Shown piece by piece: positions 48,992-64,000 of a stretch of 64,000 nucleotides of DNA (positions within the stretch are counted from its first letter, which is position 1; each line of letters starts with the position of its first letter). Under the pieces are notes generated by a model. The model saw only the letters and a program-made list of their open reading frames with translations, did not search any database and was not told the origin of the DNA. The stretch comes from a virus (lineage: Duplodnaviria; Caudoviricetes): positions 64,001 to 128,000 of IMG/VR virus record IMGVR_UViG_3300032038_009890. One strand, written 5' to 3'. Both the position numbers and the translations under genes were made by a program.

Positions 48992-51211
48992 TCATTCATA
49001 GTTTTCATAAAACTTATCCCGTAAAGTAATAATATCTAGTCCAAGCAGACTTTCTTTATCTTCCGTCTCGTCATACATCTTGCGAAGGAAACCATAAAAC
49101 TTATTATCAAGCTCATTGATCAACTGCCCAGTGCCCTCGATGTATCCGCGCCGAAGAGTAGTGCTTGCAATACTCCTCATGCGTTTCCAAAAATTATAGT
49201 ATTCGGTCTTAACTTTAAACATCAAATTTCCAGAGTCCTCAACGACAAAGCCTTCTACATATTCTCCAAGAAGTTTATATCCCTGCTTCTGTACCGCGCT
49301 ATACCACTCACAGAATTCTTCCCAATTGGTGATATTACATACCTTGCGTTTATGTGTTAATCCAAACTTAACAGCAAGGTCAACCATATCATTATAAGGT
49401 AATTTGTTAAACACAATATCATTCTTTACAATGTCAAGCAAAATGATATTATGATTCAAATATTTAATGATATGCGGGTCCTTCTCAGAATCTTCCACTT
49501 CAAATACGAAAGTACAATCATTATCTTTCAGATACTGAAGAATATTCTTACGAGCATCTTCTGTAGTTACCTCAAAGAAAATCTCCTTAAACCATCCTGC
49601 ATACTCTCCTCCTACCATAGATTTGGTACAGTAACGGAAATCATCTGCATACTCATCATATGAGAGCATTCCAAGGAATCCATTTTCTTTTACATATACA
49701 GATATTGGATACTTAATTACATCCTTTAATTCAGCAAACGTAGGGCAAATAGTACCATCTAAATAGGACATTTTCAAATATCCACGTGCACATACTTTGA
49801 TTCTATTTAGATCGATGAATAATCCTCTCGCATGGACTGTTAAATTATTCCAAATACCTTTCTTAAATGCATCACTTGAAAAGTTAAATGAGCTAATATT
49901 ATTCTCAAATTTCTTCTCGTGGATATACTTACTCGCTCTCATGTCAAGAACAAGCTTCGCCAAATCACTGGAGTTAAGCGCATTCTGAAGCTCGAACTCT
50001 TCTTTCTTACGGAATACCGTATTCTTAATCTCAATCGGCTTAAAGCCTTCGTGATCAAGCTCAACTACACGCAAACATCCGCCAAATTCAACCCTACCCT
50101 CCAGATTAAATACATGCGGAGTCACATGAATCTCAGATGCCTGTGTATTCCTGTGTCCGAAAATCTGATAAACTCCTCCAGACTTTTCTTCCCATGCGTT
50201 AGCCACGTCCAGATAATCTTCATATCTCCCAACACCCTTAATCATCTGCTCGGATGCGACTAAAGTCACGTTCTCGGGCATAAAAGAAATACCTCCATGA
50301 CAAACGAAGACTTCTTTATCATGGAATTTATACCAAGCACACTGAACAAGCTTATAATACAATCTGCTCAAATCTTTCTTATCAAAGTTGGCACTGTTCA
50401 GCTGATTCTTAGTCACCCATTCAAATTCACGGGACTTTGCAGGAATGTCATGTGCATAATTGTATATTGACACCTCATGGTTACCTGTTAGTAGTAATAC
50501 ATTTTTCTTATCTTTAATTTCAAGAAGATACTTAAGTACCTCAACATTCTCAACACCACGATCAAGATAGTCACCTAAAAAGATATAAAACACGTCATCT
50601 TCTAATTGACCGTGAAGATACTTCTGCAATACCGTATAACATCCATGCACATCTCCAATATGCACAATTTTCCGATAGTTAGACAGATCAATAGGTTTAA
50701 GCCAAATCTGTTCAATGTCTTCCCCTGTGACATTGCACGGGTCTTTAGGTTTAATCACAGTAATACCAGACGGCACTTTCTGCGTCTCAAACCGCGCATA
50801 CATTTTGTCATCTACGTCATCGGGAACCCTTTTAAGTTCCTCCCTCTGCGCATTCCGTGCTTTACATACATCAATCGGAATGCCAGTTAAATCAAGCAAA
50901 TAAATCCTATACCTATATTTAGACGCAAGATTCTTATACTTATTCATCTCTTCTGATTTAGAATTCGTTGCATCAATTACAGTAAACTCCCCTGCTTGCA
51001 TACGAATCTCTAAAAGCTTAAAGAGCATATCCCAGACCACTTTTTCATGACTAAAGCCAATCTGTACGGAGCCATTTGTGGTCTGTTGAGGAGACTGGCA
51101 CAGCATACGTATTTCATCTGCGCACAATCGATAATTTTCTAGTCCAAGCTTCCTGATAATGGTACTTTTCCCCGCTCCAGGAGCGCCTCTAAACAATAAT
51201 AATACTCTCAA
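48992..51211 (-). CDS. Polynucleotide kinase-phosphoesterase-RNA ligase fusion (Pnkp/Rnl1-like)
   Basis: GAPGAGKS kinase; GDVHG/GDYLDRG/GNHE phosphoesterase; KENG, EGFV, FKVKT ligase motifs. Start inferred at TTG overlapping the upstream stop. Confidence 0.88.
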   Translation of the reverse strand: MRVLLLFRGAPGAGKSTIIRKLGLENYRLCADEIRMLCQSPQQTTNGSVQIGFSHEKVVWDMLFKLLEIRMQAGEFTVIDATNSKSEEMNKYKNLASKYRYRIYLLDLTGIPIDVCKARNAQREELKRVPDDVDDKMYARFETQKVPSGITVIKPKDPCNVTGEDIEQIWLKPIDLSNYRKIVHIGDVHGCYTVLQKYLHGQLEDDVFYIFLGDYLDRGVENVEVLKYLLEIKDKKNVLLLTGNHEVSIYNYAHDIPAKSREFEWVTKNQLNSANFDKKDLSRLYYKLVQCAWYKFHDKEVFVCHGGISFMPENVTLVASEQMIKGVGRYEDYLDVANAWEEKSGGVYQIFGHRNTQASEIHVTPHVFNLEGRVEFGGCLRVVELDHEGFKPIEIKNTVFRKKEEFELQNALNSSDLAKLVLDMRASKYIHEKKFENNISSFNFSSDAFKKGIWNNLTVHARGLFIDLNRIKVCARGYLKMSYLDGTICPTFAELKDVIKYPISVYVKENGFLGMLSYDEYADDFRYCTKSMVGGEYAGWFKEIFFEVTTEDARKNILQYLKDNDCTFVFEVEDSEKDPHIIKYLNHNIILLDIVKNDIVFNKLPYNDMVDLAVKFGLTHKRKVCNITNWEEFCEWYSAVQKQGYKLLGEYVEGFVVEDSGNLMFKVKTEYYNFWKRMRSIASTTLRRGYIEGTGQLINELDNKFYGFLRKMYDETEDKESLLGLDIITLRDKFYENYE

Positions 51212-51561
51212 AAAGCACTGCCTTCCCACCCGCATTCAAAGCATTTATAAATATGCTGTGGCGGATTTGTCATTAGTAATTGAAATTCATTACGATATAT
51301 GCGATTTTTACATATAGGACATTCAATCTTTGTATACATCCATTCCACTGGATTATTGATTGTATCATTCCTAAACTGAATATACTTATCCCACTCTATC
51401 ACCATCACCTCCCTTTAGTTCATTTATCAAGATATTAGACAATAAAGAGCATAATTTTCTTTCTGTTTTTGATGAATCAACACGCACAGCCATAGCAAAC
51501 AGGGTTTCATATACTCGCATAGTTGTTTTAAATTCGTCACTACTCATTTGTTTCTCCAACT

Positions 51562-55403: not shown

Positions 55404-56294
55404 TTAATGTGCATATACATCTGCGTTGTGCAGAATCATAACGTCATCATAGAACTCAGTTCCGTATCTCTTAATAAATTTTCTTTCAGCCTTTTCATCA
55501 CCATTCCAGAAATATGGGTCCATATGATGGCACACAAGATTACTTACATATAGCGTATCAGCGTTATACTTTTCGCAAGCAAAGAATAATGTCTCATAGC
55601 CGCCCACATTATGATGATAATAGTAATGCACTCTTAAATCATCATCATAGCTCTTTGTATACGGTTTTCCGCAGTCATGTAATAATGATGCAACTGCTAC
55701 AGATATATCAGTATCCTTTTCACCCACATGTAGATAATGATTGTACACGTGATGAAACGTCATTGACAGATGCCTACCAAGCGAAGCAGTGTGATGCTTA
55801 GACTCCTGATTATATTGATCTAAAAAGAATGTCAGATCTGTGGGGTCTCCATTGGAGGTCATCCACTCGGACCTGTCGTAATGTATCCAAATCTCATCCC
55901 ACCCCTCCCAATAGCCGGGGGTATACCAAGATTCATAAGCCTCTTTGACGTGTTTCATTTCTCCAGAAAAGTTTTTACAGCAAATATTATAAGGTGTTGC
56001 AATGATAATGCAGATTTTATATACATCATTAAAACTGCCGACAACATTGTTAATTAGATACCTACGGCTCTTTTCTTTTACATTTGAAGCATCGACAACA
56101 CAATCACTGCCGCATGATATTATTGCCTTTATCTTATCATAATATTTATTGTATACTACTGTTTCGTCGGTGATTCCCTGATCATTTAATTTTTTCCTTA
56201 TATCACCAATTGATACAACCTCAGCCCCAATAGTACCTGCATAGGCACTTTTCCCAGAACCCGGAAGACCCACCATAGCATATAATTTAGGCAT
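55404..56294 (-). CDS. P-loop kinase (AAA_33) fused to HD phosphohydrolase
   Basis: MVGLPGSGKS, VVDASN; HH...H...LLHDCGK...HH...HM...AD. Confidence 0.85.
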   Translation of the reverse strand: MPKLYAMVGLPGSGKSAYAGTIGAEVVSIGDIRKKLNDQGITDETVVYNKYYDKIKAIISCGSDCVVDASNVKEKSRRYLINNVVGSFNDVYKICIIIATPYNICCKNFSGEMKHVKEAYESWYTPGYWEGWDEIWIHYDRSEWMTSNGDPTDLTFFLDQYNQESKHHTASLGRHLSMTFHHVYNHYLHVGEKDTDISVAVASLLHDCGKPYTKSYDDDLRVHYYYHHNVGGYETLFFACEKYNADTLYVSNLVCHHMDPYFWNGDEKAERKFIKRYGTEFYDDVMILHNADVYAH

Positions 56295-56560
56295 TAGTTA
56301 TCCCTCCTTTCTTTTATAAGAATTATTATTGCAGAACATACTATAACTACAATCGCAGATATTACAAACATCTCAAGTGTTTCGATTAACAAGGTGATTA
56401 TCCTTATAAACATACCTTCTTTTTATTTGGAATGTAATACTTAGAATAATAGCCGCACCTACAGAAGTCTTTGCGGACAACTCCATAAACAGATGTTATA
56501 TATTTCTTTTTCAGTATTACACCACAATTGGGGCAGTTAACATACATAGGTGATTTCCTC

Positions 56561-56833
56561 CTATTCTAGTCCAAGATCACTGGCAAACATAAGAGTGCCG
56601 TCTGCCTTGTAACAAGGTGTGATACCAAACCGCTCGGATGTATCATATAATATGTAGACAACTTTTGTTTTGCTGTCAACGGCATACATAAAACCTGCTG
56701 TAGTATTTTCACTATATATTTTAATTTTAGGTCTAATTGCGATTCCTACATATTCTTTGCCGAGGCTGCTATAATCACATCCAACTAAACAGCACAACAT
56801 TAATGCTAACACCAGAAACAAAAATCTTTTCAT
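56561..56833 (-). CDS. Lipoprotein, paralog of 56846..57145
   Basis: LVGC lipobox; TKVVYILY...KADGT...ASDLGLE. Confidence 0.75.
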   Translation of the reverse strand: MKRFLFLVLALMLCCLVGCDYSSLGKEYVGIAIRPKIKIYSENTTAGFMYAVDSKTKVVYILYDTSERFGITPCYKADGTLMFASDLGLE

Positions 56834-56845
56834 CTCCGCCCTCCC

Positions 56846-57145
56846 TTATTCTAGGCCAAGATCGCTTGCAAGCATCGGGGTTCCGTCTGCTTTTAAACAA
56901 GGGCATAGTGAACCAACTCTATTTGCGTTGTACAAGATATATACTACTTTTGTTTCTGTATCTATAACGTAGCAAAAACTTGTATACTCAACCACATGAT
57001 TTGCGTAGATAGCTAGATTCGGCATAGGTATCTTTTTATTGTTATATAAATAATATCCTCTCTCTTCGGGGTTAGAACATCCTGCTAAGTAACACAGCAT
57101 CAAGGCTAATGTTAGAAATAAAAACTTTCTCATCTTTATATTCAT
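56846..57145 (-). CDS. Lipoprotein, tandem paralog
   Basis: LAGC lipobox; same C-terminus. Confidence 0.75.
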   Translation of the reverse strand: MNIKMRKFLFLTLALMLCYLAGCSNPEERGYYLYNNKKIPMPNLAIYANHVVEYTSFCYVIDTETKVVYILYNANRVGSLCPCLKADGTPMLASDLGLE

Positions 57146-58200
57146 CTTTAGTATGTCTCTATCAACTCAATTTCCATTCGTGCGCCATCATCTAATCGCA
57201 AGTCATATGCTTTTCCGTAGCTATCTGCATTATACTCATCATCTCCATACCACTTAGAATAAGATAAGCACATCTGATAGCACTTATAATCTTGGCACCA
57301 GAAGATAATTCCATCGTATCCAAAGGCGCGAATTTTATCTCCAACATGAAGCTGATTACCATTTTTATCATGGATAGGCAATGCTAAACCCAATTTGTTT
57401 TGCTTGTATCCAGAAAATTTCTGACGATGAATCTTATCCATGTTTCGTTCTCCATCTAGCACGAATCTGCTCCGCTTTACTCCGAAGATCTCGGGTATGT
57501 TTGGTTGAAATGTATTTGGTTATTTTTGCGTCTATGTCAATTCGCATAAGATCTGTTGTACGGAACTCTGGATAAAGTATCAAGTACTCGTTCCAGTTAC
57601 CTACATCCAGAGGTAGCACTTCTCTTTGTGTTATAACATAGCTCCGCTCGTCTGGCATTCTAGGTTCTGATGCTTTCCAAAAAGGATACGGCGTAGGTTC
57701 ATAGCCAAAGTCTCTCTTTTTTCTGCGCTGATTTTTATTATAGCAGTCTTCACAAATCGGCATGAACCAATCTCCTAGTTCGAGCATAGGAGTATCAGGC
57801 TTGCCGCATCGTAGACAAATATTTTCGGACAACGCTGAGTAGTCATCGATGATTGCGTCAACTTCACAGTCTTTTGGAACAGGGCCGTAATAACATCTCA
57901 AAGACTCATATTTCTCTTTGATCTGAGTAATTCTGAATTCCTTTAGATAATTGTACTTCAGCAGTTCTGTTCGTAGCTCTTCGCAAAGCTGTAGGCCAAA
58001 TGCTTTCCACCAACCATCCTCGAAAATCTTGGCAAGTGTCCAGTCATATGCTTTGTGTCTCCAGATGATTTTATCAGTAAAAATATTTCTTGGGATTAAA
58101 TATGGATAATGTTTACACAAATTTTTATTTTTTTTCTCGTTTTTTTTATTTGTATAATAATTTAATTTCTGTCTCCATTTTTTCTTTTTAATTCTATGTT

Positions 58201-58944
58201 TCATAAAATGTTCTCTCTATAAACTTGTTGGCTTTCATCATAACTATATTCTTTGTAATATTCACGCTCTGCTTCTTTTCGTGATTTTATTGCTTCTTCT
58301 TTTGTGTTAAAGTATCCTAAACGAACCTTATTTTTATTTATGGAAATAAAAGCTTCCCATTTTCTTCCATTAAAAATAACTCCCTTTTCCCCAGTCTTAT
58401 TTCTTGTTGATACCTTTGTATTCATAGCATTTTCTGATGCTGAAGCAATTCTTAAATTGCATTTTCTATTGTCATTAACTGTTAATTCCCCGCCAATATG
58501 ATCAATATACGCATTAGAATCATTTACGCCCATTATTACTCTATGCAATAATTTATTCTTCCATGCACATATATAACCATTTTCATTTTCATACCAACTA
58601 TAATCTTTTATTTTATCATAATCTTCCAAATCGAAATAAAATTCATTTTCTGTGTTTGCTGTGAATCCTATTCCATAATCACCCTCTAGGTTATATTTGT
58701 TCTTTTTCCGTTGTTCTATTCTTTCTTTCTTTATAATTTCATTTCTTAAACATCCACATGAATTTGTTTTACCACTTTTTAAATTACAACTTCTTACTTG
58801 AATTATTGTTTTATTCTCACATGAACATTGACATATCCAAGTCGTATCTCTTTTACCATTTTTGCGTATAGTATCTTCTCCTCGTCTTAAAACCGTTAAT
58901 CTCCCAAATACTTGCCCTTCTAAATTTTTAAGTGGTCTTCCCAT
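58201..58944 (-). CDS. HNH homing endonuclease with Cys-rich N-terminus and AP2 domain
   Basis: NLEGQVFGRLTV, SCGC, LLHRVIM...DHI...DNRKCNLR, KGV...WEAFI...LGYF. Confidence 0.9.
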   Translation of the reverse strand: MGRPLKNLEGQVFGRLTVLRRGEDTIRKNGKRDTTWICQCSCENKTIIQVRSCNLKSGKTNSCGCLRNEIIKKERIEQRKKNKYNLEGDYGIGFTANTENEFYFDLEDYDKIKDYSWYENENGYICAWKNKLLHRVIMGVNDSNAYIDHIGGELTVNDNRKCNLRIASASENAMNTKVSTRNKTGEKGVIFNGRKWEAFISINKNKVRLGYFNTKEEAIKSRKEAEREYYKEYSYDESQQVYRENIL

Positions 58945-59234
58945 CTTCTTACCTCATACTAACTTGCGAAATTCAAATACTTCTCCGCATCTACCACACT
59001 TCACTCTTCCGCTAGTACCTATGCCAGTAGGATAAAACATATACTTATACCCTCCACCAGAAACGTCATGACAATGATTTGCGGGTAAAATCATATCCCC
59101 ACTTCCATTCTAACGATTTAGATAAAACGCTATAAACCACAAAAGGGAAGACACCCATTCTCTGCATCCGAATAGTATGTCTTCCCTCTTTTTTATATTT
59201 GATTTAATTATGTTGTTATCACGCATCCAAGTAT

Positions 59235-59331
59235 ATTTCAATCCATACGCTTATACAGGTTATTTCTGGAGGTGTTGCCGGGTCAGCTCTGCTATCCAAA
59301 TTTTAATCTATACGTTTATATAGATTATTTC
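59235..59331 (-). repeat. Two 32-nt direct repeats separated by 33 nt (mini-CRISPR-like geometry)
   Basis: GAAATAATCTATATAAACGTATAGATTAAAAT and GAAATAACCTGTATAAGCGTATGGATTGAAAT, 27/32 identical. Confidence 0.7.
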
Positions 59332-59399
59332 CCCGGATGCTTACTCTTTTGTTCCTCAGTAGGATAAGTCTGCATTTCCTTTTGGCCTGATAAGCTAAA

Positions 59400-59476
59400 C
59401 TGGCGTGGCTCGGACCGAACGAGCATCTCACGGGGTTGGCTCCCATGCGCATTAGTCCTTTTTATGCTACACGCCA
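59400..59476 (-). tRNA. Atypical tRNA, possible Trp(CCA), with enlarged anticodon arm
   Basis: TGGCGTG/CACGCCA acceptor, D and T arms; CATGGG-AGCCAAC-CCCGTG, lacking U33. Confidence 0.55.
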
Positions 59477-59564
59477 AATGAGGGATGTTTAAGCTTTGTT
59501 ACACCCCCAAAACCTTTGCCTATTAATAACCTAGTACTAGTTCGGCAGAGCGTCCTCTGCCTAA

Positions 59565-59639
59565 TGCGCCTAGTGGGTTATGCTCCCACGACCTCTACCC
59601 TTAGACTGGTAGCGCTCTCTCTTACTGAGCTATAGGCGC
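59565..59639 (-). tRNA. Atypical tRNA with 8-nt anticodon loop AGTCTAAG (CTA amber or TCT Arg reading)
   Basis: GCGCCTA/TAGGCGC, GCTC/GAGC, CTACC/GGTAG, GTGGG-AGCATAA-CCCAC. Confidence 0.7.
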
Positions 59640-59753
59640 GATGGCTGACCTTTTCACATACTCCTGCGCACTGATGTATGCGATCAAGGGATTATACTGG
59701 CTCAGCCCAACCACTAAAAAACTATATAGCTTCGGCAGGATGTCCCCTGCCTA

Positions 59754-59866
59754 TATCACGGGTGAGGATTTGCACCTCGCATGGGCTAAAGGCTCATATG
59801 TCCTTCGCAAGCATCGGATCAAGCGGCTCTTACCTTATAAGCGTCTACCTATTCCGCCACCGTGAT
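59754..59866 (-). ncRNA. tRNA-Leu-like scaffold with anticodon/variable region replaced by ~58 nt
   Basis: ATCACGG/CCGTGAT, D arm GGCGGAATAGGTAGACGC, T arm GAGG-TGCAAAT-CCTC. Confidence 0.6.
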
Positions 59867-59919
59867 ACTACATTTAATACTAACCTATGAAGCAATTCAT
59901 TTAAGGCACACTGCCCAAT

Positions 59920-59988
59920 TATCATCTCTCGATTCGAACGAGAATCTCTCACCCCCGTAGAGTATGTTACCAATTACACCAGATGACA
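59920..59988 (-). ncRNA. tRNA-like RNA with shortened anticodon loop
   Basis: GTCATCT/AGATGAT, GTGTAATTGGTAACAT, CTCG-TTCGAAT-CGAG; ACTCT-ACG-GGGGT. Confidence 0.55.
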
Positions 59989-60069
59989 AATTATGACAAT
60001 AAATCCTCACGACCACCGAGCAGGCGGCAAGTTACAATTTAATTTTCCCTTGTAAATACAGGGGAAACG

Positions 60070-60208
60070 TACTCCCAGTTGGATTCGGACCAACGACACA
60101 CGGCTTAATCCTCGCTACTGGTTCTGCCCCAGTATTTCGAATTGCGTTTTCCTTAGTTAAACTAAGCGAAGTAAGGCCGCCGCTCTAACCTGACTGAGCT
60201 ATGGGAGC
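60070..60208 (-). tRNA. tRNA (possibly Ile-TAT-derived) interrupted in the anticodon loop by a nested tRNA-like element
   Basis: GCTCCCA/TGGGAGT, canonical D arm, GCGGC/GCCGT stem, GTTGG-TCCGAAT-CCAAC; 62-nt insert at 60110-60171. Confidence 0.75.
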
Positions 60209-60474
60209 ATAAAATCCAGTGCAGATAACGCCTGTAGGTTCGCCACCTGCACCAGATGCGTCCGAAAAGCAATCTTATTCCCGAAGAATTATCATTATTC
60301 AATTTTAAATTTTTAATTAGAATTCAATTACATTATCTTGCCGTTACTTGATAACGCACCTCCCTTTGTAATCACAGACAACAAAGTTACAGCTGATAAT
60401 GAATCATAGCCATACTAGTCCAAATGCATTCACATTTTTTCTATTCAAATTTCTTTAGATTTTATATGGCTAAA

Positions 60475-60564
60475 CGCCAACGGCAGAACTCGAATCTGCA
60501 CGCCGCTCTCACGGTTACTACGGCTTTTCAAGAGCCGTACCTTACCAATTAGGTTTACGTTGGC
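60475..60564 (-). tRNA. tRNA-Ser(TGA)
   Basis: Full cloverleaf, loop CT-TGA-AA, long variable arm, G73. Confidence 0.9.
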
Positions 60565-60671
60565 ATAAAATGTTGGCGGGAACCTTGTACTTCTGCTCCT
60601 CTTTAATGCTCATTAGCAAACCAACAAAATCTTTCGTCTGCACCTGCTTTGCCCTTACAGAGTGCAAACAG

Positions 60672-60752
60672 TACCCGTAGGCGAATTCGAATCGCCACGC
60701 TAAAAGCCAAGGATTCTAAGTCCTTTACGTCTGCCAGTTCCGTCATACGGGC
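60672..60752 (-). tRNA. tRNA-Leu(TAG)
   Basis: Full cloverleaf, loop CT-TAG-AA, variable arm, A73. Confidence 0.92.
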
Positions 60753-60893
60753 ATACTCTTACATCCCATTACTCGCCTACCCCTTGCAGTTCCGGTCACC
60801 CAGTAGACCCATCTCCACGCGCCAATATGCCGTCTTACAGGATAGCTACTCCCCATAAGCTAATAGACACTTGCCCTCACAGGATGTAAGAAA

Positions 60894-60969
60894 TGCTTCG
60901 GTCTCGATTTGAACGAGAATCAGTGTGATCAGCACTGGTTTTATCCGCGTACTATTAAACTACCTAAGC
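60894..60969 (-). tRNA. Atypical tRNA-Ile(GAT)-like with enlarged D loop
   Basis: CAGTG-CTGATCA-CACTG, TCTCG-TTCAAAT-CGAGA; one acceptor mismatch. Confidence 0.55.
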
Positions 60970-61003
60970 AGATTTAGCTTTTGAGCGGAGCTATAACCGC
61001 AAC

Positions 61004-61078
61004 TAGGCACTGTACCACAAGCAGAAAGGAAATACCATATATCTTTGTTCTTCATAAAATATTTGCTGTATGTGCCTA
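61004..61078 (-). ncRNA. ACAGCAA-module RNA, copy 1
   Basis: TAGGCAC-ATACAGCAAA...GTGCCTA. Confidence 0.75.
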
Positions 61079-61148
61079 TCAAATATATTTAGTTGTCTCA
61101 TTTAGAATAACCCCTACCTGCTCTCACAGTTTATTTATACTCATCATC

Positions 61149-61262
61149 TAGGTGCATATCTGCTCTAAGCAGAAGGGGTTATTACTTTTAAGTCGCAGAG
61201 TTTTCCGCTATATTTTCCTGTACATTATTGTAATGAAATTAAAATTTTGCTGTATGCACCTA
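61149..61262 (-). ncRNA. ACAGCAA-module RNA, copy 2
   Basis: TAGGTGCAT-ACAGCAAAA...ATGCACCTA. Confidence 0.75.
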
Positions 61263-61264
61263 AA

Positions 61265-61378
61265 CGCATGGGACAGGGATCGAACCTGTATCTTTCGCGG
61301 GACAGGCGATATAATATTTGCTGATTATGACTATTGCTAGCCACGTTTTAACGTTCTAACCAATTAAACTACCCATGC
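61265..61378 (-). ncRNA. tRNA-Asp(GTC)-like scaffold with a permuted module inserted (copy 3)
   Basis: GCATGGG/CCCATGC, D and T arms, TCGC-CTGTCCC-GCGA; insert AAC-GTGGCTA-GCAA-TAGTCAT-AATCAGCAAA. Confidence 0.7.
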
Positions 61379-61381
61379 ATA

Positions 61382-61463
61382 GGGGAGGATGTAAGAAATC
61401 GAACTTATGAGTATATGCTGTAACTGTCTGCCTAGACAGTGCCACCCTTGGCTCCATCCCCCC
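61382..61463 (-). ncRNA. tRNA-like scaffold whose anticodon arm is a permuted module (copy 4)
   Basis: GGGGATG/CATCCTC; ACTGTCT-AGGC-AGACAGT-TACAGCATA; TAAG-TTCGATTT-CTTA. Confidence 0.65.
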
Positions 61464-61471
61464 ATAAAAAC

Positions 61472-61580
61472 TAGATACCGTTTGACTTGGGCGCGACTCC
61501 AAGATTTCTCCCTAGGGGAGCGTCCTACGCATTTAGACTATATGTTCCGTGAAACATCCGATAACTGCTGTAGGTATCTA
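61472..61580 (-). ncRNA. ACAGCAA-module RNA enclosing tRNA-like D, anticodon and T arms (copy 5)
   Basis: TAGATACC-TACAGCAG...TAGTCTAAATGCGTAGGAC-G-CTCCC/GGGAG-AAAT-CTTGG/CCAAG...AAAC-GGTATCTA. Confidence 0.75.
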
Positions 61581-61584
61581 TATA

Positions 61585-63114
61585 TTAGATAATCCCTTTC
61601 AGCGCCGCATCAACGGCGTCATACCGAGGACTGTTAATAGTATCAAGTAAAACATCATACGGGTCCATACGATCACTCATGACCATCCGCAGAAGCTGAA
61701 CAGAAAAACCAGAGCAAAGTACAAGACCATTTTCATTTTTCTGCATCGGCATCGTCTTATCTACTTCTCCAGAGAGATTCCAGAAGATGATGCGAGGCAG
61801 TTTATATCCATGCATCTGATATTTACGAGAAATACTCTCAAAAATTGTATTAATCCTAGAAGGTGCATATACAGCTTGGTTAAACTGCATATCACTAAGG
61901 ATAATAACTCTGCTCGGCATCTCATCCTGCTTATAGCCATTACTAATAGCTGTTTGCAGAATAAGGTCCATCGTTTTCTCAATATCAGTATCTGCCACCT
62001 CGGAATGCTTAAAGAAATACTCGATCTTTTCGCGGAGGCTATTGCAGTTACTCAGGTCAAAAAACTTCGGCCTATTGGAAAAAGAAAGTACAAGATTTTT
62101 CCAATCGTCGCTGTTATGCTCCGACGTATAAACAGACAGAGCAATCGCAACATCAAAAGGTCTAACCTTAGTACGGTATCCAGGCTCACACATCGAGGAT
62201 GAGGTATCACATACTACAAGAGTATCTCCAATCCCCATCTGCGGCAATGCCTTCCACAGCTGTTCTAGCGTCTCATCATACGCATTGATGTTTGGCCTAT
62301 ACCAACTATAGCCATAGTTGATATAGCTATTGACGATCTCATGAGGCTGAAGCACACCTGCATTGATTTTAGTCTCTCCCTTTGTTAGCGACTGCAGATA
62401 AGTTGCGCGCCTCTCTTCGTCATGCCGCATAAAGGCCTTACCATAAATCAGGTTTGCCCTAGACGGCACAGCAGAGTAGTTGATCTCGCCCCATTTCTGC
62501 GCAGACATCTTTGACTCGACCAGATCGAGCGTCTTCCGCATGGCAGAAATCTTTTTTCTATACCTTGCAGGAGTAATGCCCCAAGCGTCAATAAAAATCC
62601 CTGCGTAACGTTTCGTCTCACGCGAAGATGCGACACAGCTAGGAAGCCACTTAACTAGTAAGCTGATCGGCTTACCTTCCTTCAGCGCTTCATAGTCCTT
62701 GTCAAGCTGAACGCCAACAAGGTCAATCACATCCTGCTTGAGCGGAGTATCCAGAAACGGCCATAGATCCTTCCATCGCCCGTACTCAGGGAATAGTGGA
62801 AGCAGTGCCTTAACCACGGCAGGACGATTTTCGACCAACCACTGCATACAGGTGATAAATGTCCTTCTCTCGCCCATGCCTTCACGACAGTCACGTAAGA
62901 AGAACAGGTATTTTACACCAACATGCGGATCCTCATAGAATGCCGCCTGATACATGTTGGCAATGTACTCTTCACTCTGCTCACGTAGTCCAGTCGTTGC
63001 GAAGTTAAAATCTAATAGCGCATGACCAGATGACTCATAGGCCAATGCACCGTTTTCAGTCAGCGTCTTCTGCTGATTCAGCTGACTTTTTAAACCAGTA
63101 GCAAACTTATTCAT
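61585..63114 (-). CDS. DUF2828-family protein (TROVE-like helical domain + vWA; Ro60-like)
   Basis: TENGA, LLDF, FFLRDCREGMGERRTF, YGRWKDL, KWLPS, YSAVPSRA, CDTSSSM MIDAS, ILSDMQF, IFWNL, SGFS; start at ATG 63114 after SD. Confidence 0.88.
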   Translation of the reverse strand: MNKFATGLKSQLNQQKTLTENGALAYESSGHALLDFNFATTGLREQSEEYIANMYQAAFYEDPHVGVKYLFFLRDCREGMGERRTFITCMQWLVENRPAVVKALLPLFPEYGRWKDLWPFLDTPLKQDVIDLVGVQLDKDYEALKEGKPISLLVKWLPSCVASSRETKRYAGIFIDAWGITPARYRKKISAMRKTLDLVESKMSAQKWGEINYSAVPSRANLIYGKAFMRHDEERRATYLQSLTKGETKINAGVLQPHEIVNSYINYGYSWYRPNINAYDETLEQLWKALPQMGIGDTLVVCDTSSSMCEPGYRTKVRPFDVAIALSVYTSEHNSDDWKNLVLSFSNRPKFFDLSNCNSLREKIEYFFKHSEVADTDIEKTMDLILQTAISNGYKQDEMPSRVIILSDMQFNQAVYAPSRINTIFESISRKYQMHGYKLPRIIFWNLSGEVDKTMPMQKNENGLVLCSGFSVQLLRMVMSDRMDPYDVLLDTINSPRYDAVDAALKGII

Positions 63115-63128
63115 TACATTTTCCTTTC

Positions 63129-63209
63129 TAGACGCACAAATTTGATGGATTTGAACCATCTTAAAACACGTATGTTTTGTTATCCAGAATATTTTGCTGT
63201 ATGCGTCTA
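63129..63209 (-). ncRNA. ACAGCAA-module RNA with T-arm (copy 6), directly 5' of the DUF2828 SD
   Basis: TAGACGCA-TACAGCAAAA...GATGG-TTCAAAT-CCATC...TGCGTCTA. Confidence 0.75.
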
Positions 63210-63212
63210 TAA

Positions 63213-63331
63213 TCGAGAGAGGAGGAATTGAACCTCCGCTTGCGGACCCAAGGCGTCATAAATTTGCTGTTAGTGACTATTAAAGTCACGTTATAGACAT
63301 TTCCGCCGTACTACCACTATACCATCTCCCG
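63213..63331 (-). ncRNA. tRNA-Pro-like scaffold with a permuted module in the anticodon arm (copy 7)
   Basis: CGGGAGA/TCTCTCG-A, GCGGA/TCCGC, GGAGG-TTCAATT-CCTCC; insert AAC-GTGACT-TTAAT-AGTCAC-TAACAGCAAA; TTGGG remnant. Confidence 0.75.
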
Positions 63332-63337
63332 TAAAAC

Positions 63338-63404
63338 TAGGCGCGTTTTTTGGGTGTTAGTTTAAAAAGCTAATCCAGAAATTATGTTTTGCAGTATGCG
63401 CCTA
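63338..63404 (-). ncRNA. ACAGCAA-module RNA, copy 8 (ACTGCAA variant)
   Basis: TAGGCGC-ATACTGCAAAA...AAAC-GCGCCTA. Confidence 0.7.
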
Positions 63405-63495
63405 TAGTTGGTTTTTGTTAAAGCAGAACCATAACTGCTTTGGTGTGTGCAACACCAGATCAAAAAAGGAGGGAACAAATAAAAAGACAGATAAA

Positions 63496-63568
63496 CAGCC
63501 TGTCGGGTAGTCGAAACCCGCTTTTTTGGATGAAAACCAAAGATTCTAAACCGCTAAACTAACAGGCC
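63496..63568 (-). tRNA. tRNA-Glu(TTC)
   Basis: GGCCTGT/ACAGGCT, TTTGG-TTTTCAT-CCAAA, CGGGT-TTCGACT-ACCCG. Confidence 0.8.
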
Positions 63569-63632
63569 ATATCTAGCTTTTTTTAAAGCGGAGCTAGAAC
63601 CGCTGTCACCTTGGAAAGGGGCACAGCCCCAA

Positions 63633-63704
63633 TAGCCCCTGCGGGTTATGCTCCCACTTCATATCTGTGAAAGAGATATATCATAGCTATTAGACTAAGG
63701 GGCC
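63633..63704 (-). tRNA. tRNA-Glu(TTC) with non-canonical T loop
   Basis: GGCCCCT/AGGGGCT, TATCT-CTTTCAC-AGATA, T loop AGCATAA. Confidence 0.7.
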
Positions 63705-63843
63705 AAATAAAGTAGTCACCACGATTTGTGACAATAAATCGATTCGTGGGTCGCAACACTGCGTGAACAATAGTTACTAGAGCGTGTTTGTGGTGACTAC
63801 CCAAGATATTGATACGACAGGTTTCAAAGTTGCCACGCTCTAA

Positions 63844-63905
63844 ATAGGACAGGAGGAATTGGACCTCCATCTGTCGAAACCGCTCTACCATTGAGCTATG
63901 TCCCA
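63844..63905 (-). ncRNA. Anticodon-less tRNA-like RNA
   Basis: TGGGACA/TGTCCTA, TAGCTCAATGGTAGAGC, GGAGG-TCCAATT-CCTCC; anticodon arm reduced to GT-TTCG-AC. Confidence 0.75.
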
Positions 63906-64000
63906 TTATGCGTAGCTTTTGATAAAGCAGAGCTACGCTAGAACTGCTTCGTAACAGACAACCCATTTCTTGGAGGATCGAATAAAAGACAGTGGAACAG

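Follow-up and report, generated by a model that had tools for sequence, protein, structure and literature searches.

Closed RNA handles in tRNA-like elements beside a Ro60-like DUF2828 gene of a phage: a probable back-to-front form of tRNA-mimicking Y RNAs

Ro60 and its Y RNAs are the textbook example of a protein to which mimics of transfer RNA (tRNA) are tethered. In bacteria and mycobacteriophages, Y RNA genes are located beside the Ro60 genes on the same strand, and in YrlA the stem that binds Ro60 corresponds to the anticodon stem (Chen et al., 2014; PMC4201824). A Ro60 protein encoded by a phage also binds Y-like RNAs, which are encoded upstream of its gene (PMC12135203). Here, we describe three tRNA-like elements (copies A, B, and C) from a 64,000-nt stretch of phage DNA, termed the window (positions 64,001 to 128,000 of IMG/VR record IMGVR_UViG_3300032038_009890), each of which carries a loop-closed hairpin followed by an ACAGCAA-type box (together, the closed handle), and which are found near the gene for a DUF2828 protein. 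These elements are probably stable, tRNA-shaped noncoding RNAs that act as Y-RNA-like mimics and bind the adjacent Ro60-like protein, and they most likely represent a back-to-front form of the tRNA-mimicking Y RNAs rather than ordinary intron-bearing tRNAs.

The window belongs to a 217-kb phage genome, which is classified in IMG/VR as a provirus and is 98% complete. All genes in the window are on the minus strand, and the elements lie in an island (59400-64000) of tRNA and tRNA-like genes that surrounds a single protein gene, that of the DUF2828 protein (Table 1). Comparison of the island with cultured phages by blastn returned 0 matches, and a scan of viral contigs with the single protein sequence returned nothing; the recovery of homologs required an alignment. 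Related loci (referred to by L numbers) were retrieved along with the protein homologs (48-62% identical), four at first and then 80. A covariance model built from the closed handle (R1) was used to survey 85 sources encoding a DUF2828 protein, at E ≤ 0.01, and the anticodon calls that ARAGORN makes for forced introns were ignored as arbitrary.

An earlier note on this DNA had proposed three copies of a module with reversed strand order, set into the anticodon arms of tRNA scaffolds in which Asp and Pro ancestry can still be seen. All three copies are found where it placed them, on the minus strand, each with the reversed order of 3' strand, loop (4-5 nt), 5' strand, and box. These units are circular permutations of an open module that also occurs in the island (described below), and they are located in the anticodon arm of tRNA scaffolds. 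In each copy, the helix stands directly before a single-stranded (N)ACAGCAA, near the DUF2828 gene and on its strand, and is closed by a loop rather than joining the ends of the RNA. Copy A reads GUGACU-UUAAU-AGUCAC followed by UAACAGCAA; its handle enters at the 5' side of the anticodon loop, with CUUGGGU retained on the 3' side, so that the anticodon arm ends in a loop of 55 nt, the 5' part of which holds the handle. Copy B reads UGGCUA-GCAA-UAGUCA followed by UAAUCAGCAA, with one additional U in the box; here, the handle lies within the anticodon stem, in its 5' strand (∼27/28), and interrupts the stem by ∼41 nt, but a complete stem-loop is retained, whose loop (CUGUCCC) contains GUC and has C37. 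The proposed graft into the anticodon arm is accurate as to the position of the handle, but in copy B the arm has not been replaced. Copy C reads ACUGUCU-AGGC-AGACAGU followed by UACAGCAU, and its predicted fold comprises an acceptor stem, the handle arm, and a T-like arm, with the canonical D arm absent.

The Rfam tRNA model (RF00005) places copies A and B above its cut-off of 29 bits, each with an insert of ∼55 nt in the anticodon arm, and neither this model nor ARAGORN calls a tRNA in copy C. The Pro features of copy A (C1-G72, A73, and CUUGGGU) and the GUC loop of copy B were both confirmed, in agreement with the ancestry read earlier. None of the three copies has the regular anticodon arm, a 5-bp stem free of interruption and a 7-nt loop with U33 and a purine at 37, and none of them encodes CCA.

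The handle motif is clustered in a manner not due to chance. The motif UAG-N4-6-(A/U)UACAGCAA occurs eight times, in five open and three closed handles, all on the minus strand within 61000-63410; the pattern TAG-N5-TACWGCA has 15 matches (vs. 7.4 expected), and its exact matches all fall in the same interval and on the same strand. Across the whole 217-kb genome, the only R1 matches are the three copies, a single open handle, and one weak match off target.

Closed handles are widespread among the surveyed sources, with 199 R1 matches in the 85 sources, 199/199 of them on the strand of the DUF2828 gene. In the alignment of 53 closed handles, CAGCA is invariant and the flanking A residues are at least 90% conserved, while the 7-bp hairpin is paired in 95.1% of cases (34-47% in slid controls) and shows changes on both sides at 7/7 pairs. 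Among the best 150 matches, 138 lie within a tRNA scaffold called by ARAGORN with introns allowed, and the remaining 12 are mostly visibly tRNA-like as well. In five other phage records (100-206 kb), 21 of 22 R1 matches are within ∼2.5 kb of the DUF2828 gene, and the outlier is ∼140 kb away. The survey and the scaffold counts indicate that the tRNA-embedded closed handle is a common, conserved design of this phage clade and not a peculiarity of the window. Furthermore, the covariation together with the total strand bias points to function at the RNA level, and bears out what the earlier note had argued.

The closed handle has two recurrent sites of insertion. In type A, which includes copy A, it enters the anticodon loop from the 5' side and leaves nucleotides 34-38 in place. 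Seven orthologs of copy A show covariation in the acceptor, D, anticodon, and T stems, with compensatory changes in 23/30 pairs, and C1-G72 and A73 are invariant among them; GG can be placed at positions 35-36 in 6/7 (in two only with the last anticodon-stem pair open), and position 33 is variable (U, C, C, C, A, or G). Together, C1-G72, A73, and GG35-36 are the identity elements of bacterial prolyl-tRNA synthetase. This pattern of change indicates that the copy A scaffold is under selection. A second type A family is Gly-like, in that it keeps NCC-AA, has U73 in several members, and encodes CCA in some. In type B, which includes copy B, the handle is a large bulge on the 5' side of the anticodon stem (27/28-28/29), and the lower stem and a canonical 7-nt loop are retained. 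The loop CUGUUAA is invariant over the stems GGU/ACC, UGC/GCA, and GCU/AGC, and other type B loops read UGU, UUU, UCU, GAA, and CUA. In locus L011 (325-450), a handle-bearing scaffold has the intact loop CUCUAAA with the anticodon CUA, and resembles an amber suppressor; the clade is one with suspected TAG recoding.

Not all tRNA bodies of these loci end alike, as CCA is encoded by 10/88 handle-bearing scaffolds vs. 138/230 ordinary tRNAs of the same loci. The earlier suggestion that the open-acceptor form keeps a chargeable end thus finds some backing in the acceptor stems and identity nucleotides, which are kept, but is weakened by these counts and by the absence of CCA in the three copies. 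The genome also encodes ordinary tRNA-Asp(GUC) and tRNA-Pro(UGG) outside the window and on the opposite strand (genome 176425-176661, +), which are not close copies of copies B and A, and locus L004 has an ordinary tRNA-Lys(UUU) beside a handle-bearing tRNA-Lys(UUU). By their identities (Pro and Asp), copies A and B are redundant for decoding.

Open handles occur in the same island in five copies (M1 to M5). In these, the strand before the box pairs perfectly with a strand 35-100 nt downstream, and the pairs covary among copies (GGCGC/GCGCC, GACGCA/UGCGUC, GAUACC/GGUAUC, GGUGCAU/AUGCACC, and GGCAC/GUGCC), whereas pairing with the upstream neighbor instead is mismatched. M3 encloses D-like, anticodon-like, and T-like arms. 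M2 contains a mimic of the T arm, and 1-2 nt separate the end of its 3' strand from the ribosome-binding site (AAAGGA) of the DUF2828 gene.

In related loci, the interior of four open handles is a tRNA with its parts permuted: first the anticodon arm's 3' part, then the variable region, the T arm, a closed acceptor hairpin, the D arm, and finally the 5' part of the anticodon stem. Three of these acceptor-closed forms have the handle joined at 28/29 (L012 2293, L012 6176, and L034 883); in the fourth (L034 1975), the handle is at the 5' side of the loop and GCC-AA is kept, as in the Gly-type closed forms. Read from their sequences, the four correspond exactly to circularly permuted type B and type A elements. 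The main reason for regarding the chimera as an end product, and not as an intron-bearing tRNA, is that a closed acceptor is incompatible with an ordinary tRNA precursor. The earlier note had held that two topologies, module inside tRNA and tRNA inside module, converge on one architecture. The shared architecture is upheld, since the acceptor-closed relatives use the same junctions (28/29 or the 5' side of the anticodon loop), but convergence is no better a description than permutation of one ancestral design, which is equally likely. The occurrence of the handle on tRNA bodies in both topologies, with the junction unchanged, suggests that selection acts on the three-dimensional shape.

The protein encoded between these elements has 509 amino acids and, in its predicted structure, comprises a Ro60-like ring and a vWA domain, with the metal ion-dependent adhesion site motif (DxSxS) kept in the alignment of homologs. 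The AlphaFold2 model has a predicted local distance difference test score (pLDDT) of 81.5. The top 13 Foldseek matches of this model are all Ro60/TROVE proteins, the best being the Ro60 of Thermus phage phiLo (E 2.6e-7), and both domains match the Ro60 fold. By VIA-align, all Ro60 entries have Z scores of 12.0-16.5 over ∼400 residues, and matches to the vWA domain only do not exceed 10.5. A Pfam search of the protein gave no TROVE match at E ≤ 0.001, and a profile search of PDB sequences gave no Ro60 match, such that the relation is visible by fold only. The DUF2828 protein is thus Ro60-like in its modeled fold, and on the grounds of co-location and fold it is the presumed partner that binds copies A, B, and C.

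Among cultured phages, 696 records contain the DUF2828 family, annotated as "RNA-binding protein" or "Ro-like RNA binding protein"; relatives of Felix O1, P100, and Tsamsa are represented, as are many mycobacteriophages; among the papers that mention DUF2828, none treats its function or an RNA partner. Open handles lie beside the DUF2828 gene in 5/5 cultured phages examined, from five host genera (Bacillus phage Tsamsa, Fusobacterium phage Fnu1, Shigella phage Sf17, Mycobacterium phage Vetrix, and Listeria phage LMLPA3). In Tsamsa (L091), six unannotated open handles (1293, 2235, 2877, 3455, 3703, and 3844) occur among and after 19 annotated tRNA genes, the last of them in the leader of the gene annotated as an RNA-binding protein. 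No convincing closed handle was found in Tsamsa or Fnu1 using R1 with filters off. Listeria phage LMLPA3 encodes the RNA ligase RtcB 1.3 kb from its DUF2828 gene.

A handle in the 5' untranslated region (UTR) is present in nearly every DUF2828 homolog, and adjoins the ribosome-binding site here and in close relatives. The interior of these leader handles is often a look-alike of an anticodon stem-loop, with a 7-nt loop of the form CU-NNN-AA (e.g., L008, L019, L011, L034, and L081); the loops include CUUUUAA, CUGUUAA, CUGUAAA, and CUGCUAA. In M2 and in the leader handles of L001, L004, and L005, a T-arm look-alike is found inside instead.

A working scheme can be outlined for the locus. A single minus-strand transcript may run through the array M1-A-M2/gene-M3-C-B-M4-M5. 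The tRNA scaffolds would serve as cutting points, so that RNase P and 3' trimming free the open handles along with the scaffolds; this mode of release is suggested by the placement of open handles 2-8 nt from scaffold ends. The DUF2828 protein would bind the handle, that is, the covarying helix and the invariant single-stranded ACAGCAA, as its fold and its co-location with the handles suggest. Where the handle adjoins the ribosome-binding site, binding may allow the protein to repress its own translation. In copies A, B, and C, the handle projects from the anticodon arm, in the same place as the Ro60-binding stem of YrlA, and the resulting particle may present an L-shaped tRNA body, which keeps the nucleotides for synthetase identity and, in type B, the whole anticodon loop, to tRNA-handling enzymes or host anticodon nucleases. 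Possible downstream roles include a tether to tRNA enzymes, a decoy for anticodon nucleases, and a platform for tRNA repair.

The arrangement resembles that of YrlA in that small RNAs lie beside a ring-plus-vWA gene on the same strand, and in that a protein-binding stem, here a predicted one, extends from a tRNA-like body at the anticodon-stem position, with canonical D and T arms. It differs in that the protein belongs to the Pfam families DUF2828/DUF7788 and not to TROVE, and in that the acceptor is open and the handle closed, the reverse of YrlA; acceptor-closed forms do occur in related loci. The phiLo Ro60 (PDB 9KOP and 9L5Y) is the best structural match to the DUF2828 protein (Z 16.5 over 403 residues), at ∼15% identity, and its partner RNAs, Yrl1 and Yrl2, are encoded just upstream of its gene, but these have a stem-bulge-stem form with a CGAA motif and are not embedded in a tRNA (PMC12135203). 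A search of the literature on Ro60, phage, and tRNA-like RNAs turned up only classical Y RNAs.

Other described RNAs share single features with the locus. In dictyostelid amoebae, the two ends of the Class I RNAs pair in a 6-bp stem around a variable interior, and a conserved 11-nt single-stranded motif, in which T3, C6, C9, A10, and A11 are conserved, follows directly after the 5' strand (Kjellin et al., 2021; PMC7919456). The described motif positions fit NNUNACAGCAA, a likeness that rests on the stated positions and that concerns the open handles, as copies A, B, and C have a closed stem; Class I RNAs further differ in being eukaryotic, in having no tRNA body, and in their reported binder, a protein with an RNA recognition motif (PMC7919456). 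The "enigmatic" tRNA introns of Lak megaphages (Devoto et al., 2019; PMC6784885) are likewise inserts of tens of bases in the anticodon region, with no known splicing route. In contrast to the inserts described here, they are defined by gene pairs with and without the intron, some are tRNA-shaped, and neither an ACAGCAA handle nor a Ro60-like partner has been reported for them (PMC6784885). With inserts of 41-55 nt, the copies do not accommodate a group I ribozyme core (∼200 nt or more), and the junctions, checked by eye, do not correspond to an archaeal bulge-helix-bulge intron. A CRISPR-repeat-like arrangement (a hairpin with an 8-nt tail) was also considered, and rejected because the stems differ among copies and there is no repeat-spacer periodicity.

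Several observations weigh against the Y-RNA-like interpretation. The handle (a helix and ACAGCAA) is without the GNCGAA of Ro60-bound Y RNAs, and an Rfam search of 56000-64000 (E up to 1) returned tRNA only, with no match to a Y RNA and none to an intron. Some handle-bearing relatives (10/88) do encode CCA. Type B elements keep perfect 7-nt anticodon loops, and without the insert they would have a clean 5-bp anticodon stem; an intact loop and a restorable stem are what a working tRNA or a spliced precursor would show. Additionally, a closing helix under the handle (P2), short and A/U-rich, is possible in the copy A family, where compensatory changes were noted by eye (W, L001, L002, and L004), but it was rejected as a general feature: it is 49.8% paired in a fixed register, and its duplex energies are only marginally better than those of shuffles (-2.5 vs. 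-2.1 kcal/mol, p 0.04) and no better than those of displaced windows.

One alternative, which we consider unlikely, is that the copies are genuine tRNA genes (Pro, Asp, and others) in which the handle is a new kind of intron, cut by an endonuclease, perhaps one guided by the Ro60-like protein, and resealed by an Rnl1-type ligase. The type B elements lend themselves to this explanation, as removal of the insert yields a 5-bp anticodon stem with a canonical loop, and the genome does encode, ∼10 kb away, a 747-aa protein with polynucleotide kinase (PNK), phosphatase, and Rnl1 domains. Phage tRNA introns of unknown mechanism have also been reported (PMC6784885), and another tRNA of the island is split by a different, tRNA-shaped insert. 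In type A, however, where position 33 varies among orthologs, no single excision yields a loop with U33, and the handle also exists as a free-standing open module and in mRNA leaders, where an intron is impossible. The acceptor-closed permutations, which share the junction, argue against it as well. Neither RtcB nor a splicing endonuclease (tRNA_int_endo) was found in the genome, no insert-less orthologs were found among the 324 ordinary tRNAs of the loci, and the copies duplicate ordinary tRNAs of the same genome. A natural plus/minus pair was seen for another kind of insert: L037 (4097-4229) and L043 (4097-4182) have near-identical tRNA-Leu(UAA) genes (47/48 end positions), one with and one without an unrelated, handle-less 47-nt insert in the anticodon loop.

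It is quite improbable that the copies are working tRNAs, charged and active in translation, in which the handle persists as an additional arm with a regulatory role only, even with the intact anticodon stem-loop of type B, canonical D and T arms, conserved identity nucleotides, and a CCA encoded in a few relatives to commend this view. A normal anticodon loop is missing from type A and the D arm from copy C, and position 37 of copy B is a C. An arm of ∼45 nt at positions 27-29 would sit where the small ribosomal subunit grips the anticodon stem. Encoded CCA is also much rarer than in the neighboring ordinary tRNAs, with which the copies are redundant. We hold equally doubtful a related proposal, in which the elements are live tRNA "baits" or "pro-tRNAs": they would undergo tRNA processing and charging, since anticodon features of Pro, Gly, Asn, Lys, Thr, and even amber-suppressor tRNAs are kept, and the Ro60-like ring would hold them via the handle. 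If true, this would constitute a protein-gated tRNA pool of a kind undescribed in any system, which might soak up host anticodon nucleases and pass the damaged tRNA to the PNK-phosphatase-Rnl1 enzyme, or else release its tRNAs on cue through excision of the handle. Least of all do we expect decaying tRNA pseudogenes hit by a mobile repeat, or a DNA-level promoter, terminator, or recombination site: the many repeat copies within one small region and the degenerate copy C would suit such an origin, but compensatory changes keep every scaffold and handle helix across phages whose proteins are only 50-60% identical, and the strand bias is strict. The stems differ among copies while the single-stranded box is invariant, which fits recognition of RNA rather than a DNA site.

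Table 1. Positions of the handle-bearing elements and of other features in the window.
Feature	Position	Strand	Details
Copy A, tRNA-Pro-like scaffold (C1-G72, A73)	63331..63213	-	Rfam tRNA 49.2 bits; R1 39.4 bits
Copy A, handle hairpin	63273-63289	-	6 bp, 5-nt loop
Copy A, box	63264-63270	-	ACAGCAA, predicted single-stranded
Copy B, tRNA-Asp-like scaffold	61378..61265	-	Rfam tRNA 46.1 bits; R1 39.8 bits
Copy B, handle	61318-61343	-	Hairpin 61328-61343; box AUCAGCAA 61318-61325
Copy B, retained stem-loop	61295-61309	-	UCGC-CUGUCCC-GCGA
Copy C, reduced tRNA-like scaffold	61463..61382	-	Fold z -3.2; R1 21 bits, E 0.027
Copy C, handle hairpin	61423-61440	-	
Copy C, box	61415-61421	-	ACAGCAU
Open handle M1	63338..63404	-	Ends 6 nt before 5' end of copy A
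Open handle M2	63129..63209	-	In 5' UTR of DUF2828 gene; T-arm mimic 63144-63160
Open handle M3	61472..61580	-	Ends 8 nt before copy C
Open handle M4	61149..61262	-	Begins 2 nt past 3' end of copy B
Open handle M5	61004..61078	-	
DUF2828 + DUF7788 protein gene (Pfam)	61585..63114	-	509 aa
Open frame with Rnl1-type RNA ligase domain	48992-51235	-	747 aa; 105.7 bits
62-nt tRNA-like element	63844-63905	-	Rfam tRNA 45.8 bits
Element with 9-bp long-range stem	63770-63840	-	
tRNA with 67-nt insert	60070-60208	-	
Pseudoknot-like motif sites	about 63575-63615, 63915-63950, 63415-63460, 60975-61000	-	

Additional elements were noted in the surroundings of the copies. The homolog of the 747-aa protein in L003 has the domains AAA_33, Metallophos, and RNA_lig_T4_1, from which the protein is read as a PNK-phosphatase-ligase repair enzyme. 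The 62-nt tRNA-like element has its anticodon arm cut to 4 nt, and is followed by an element with a 9-bp long-range stem (UAGAGCGUG...CACGCUCUA) that has GCAAC in place of the ACAGCAA of other handles. A pseudoknot-like motif (GCGG/GCAG-UUNUAGCU-CCGC/CUGC ... AGCUA) is repeated in the window and ends a few bases before the 5' end of a tRNA or tRNA-like gene. The tRNA with the 67-nt insert carries it after CUUA of the anticodon loop, and the ACAGCAA box is absent there. Elsewhere in the record, outside the window, the region from about 130000 to 150000 of the genome has a G+C content of 0.47-0.52, vs. 0.34-0.40 in the rest.

What is new here is the closed handle within an open-acceptor tRNA scaffold, with two insertion sites, conserved identity nucleotides, and matching acceptor-closed permutations. 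If copies A, B, and C are indeed Y-RNA-like mimics, the DUF2828 proteins would constitute a second protein family, Ro60-like in shape only, with an RNA handle of its own, and the selected shape may be that of an L-shaped tRNA gripped by protein at its anticodon stem. The natural "open-acceptor" and "closed-acceptor" versions provide a means to test the purpose of the tRNA part. In practical terms, programs that search for tRNA genes miss the handle-bearing genes of these phages, or report them as intron-bearing tRNAs with arbitrary anticodons.

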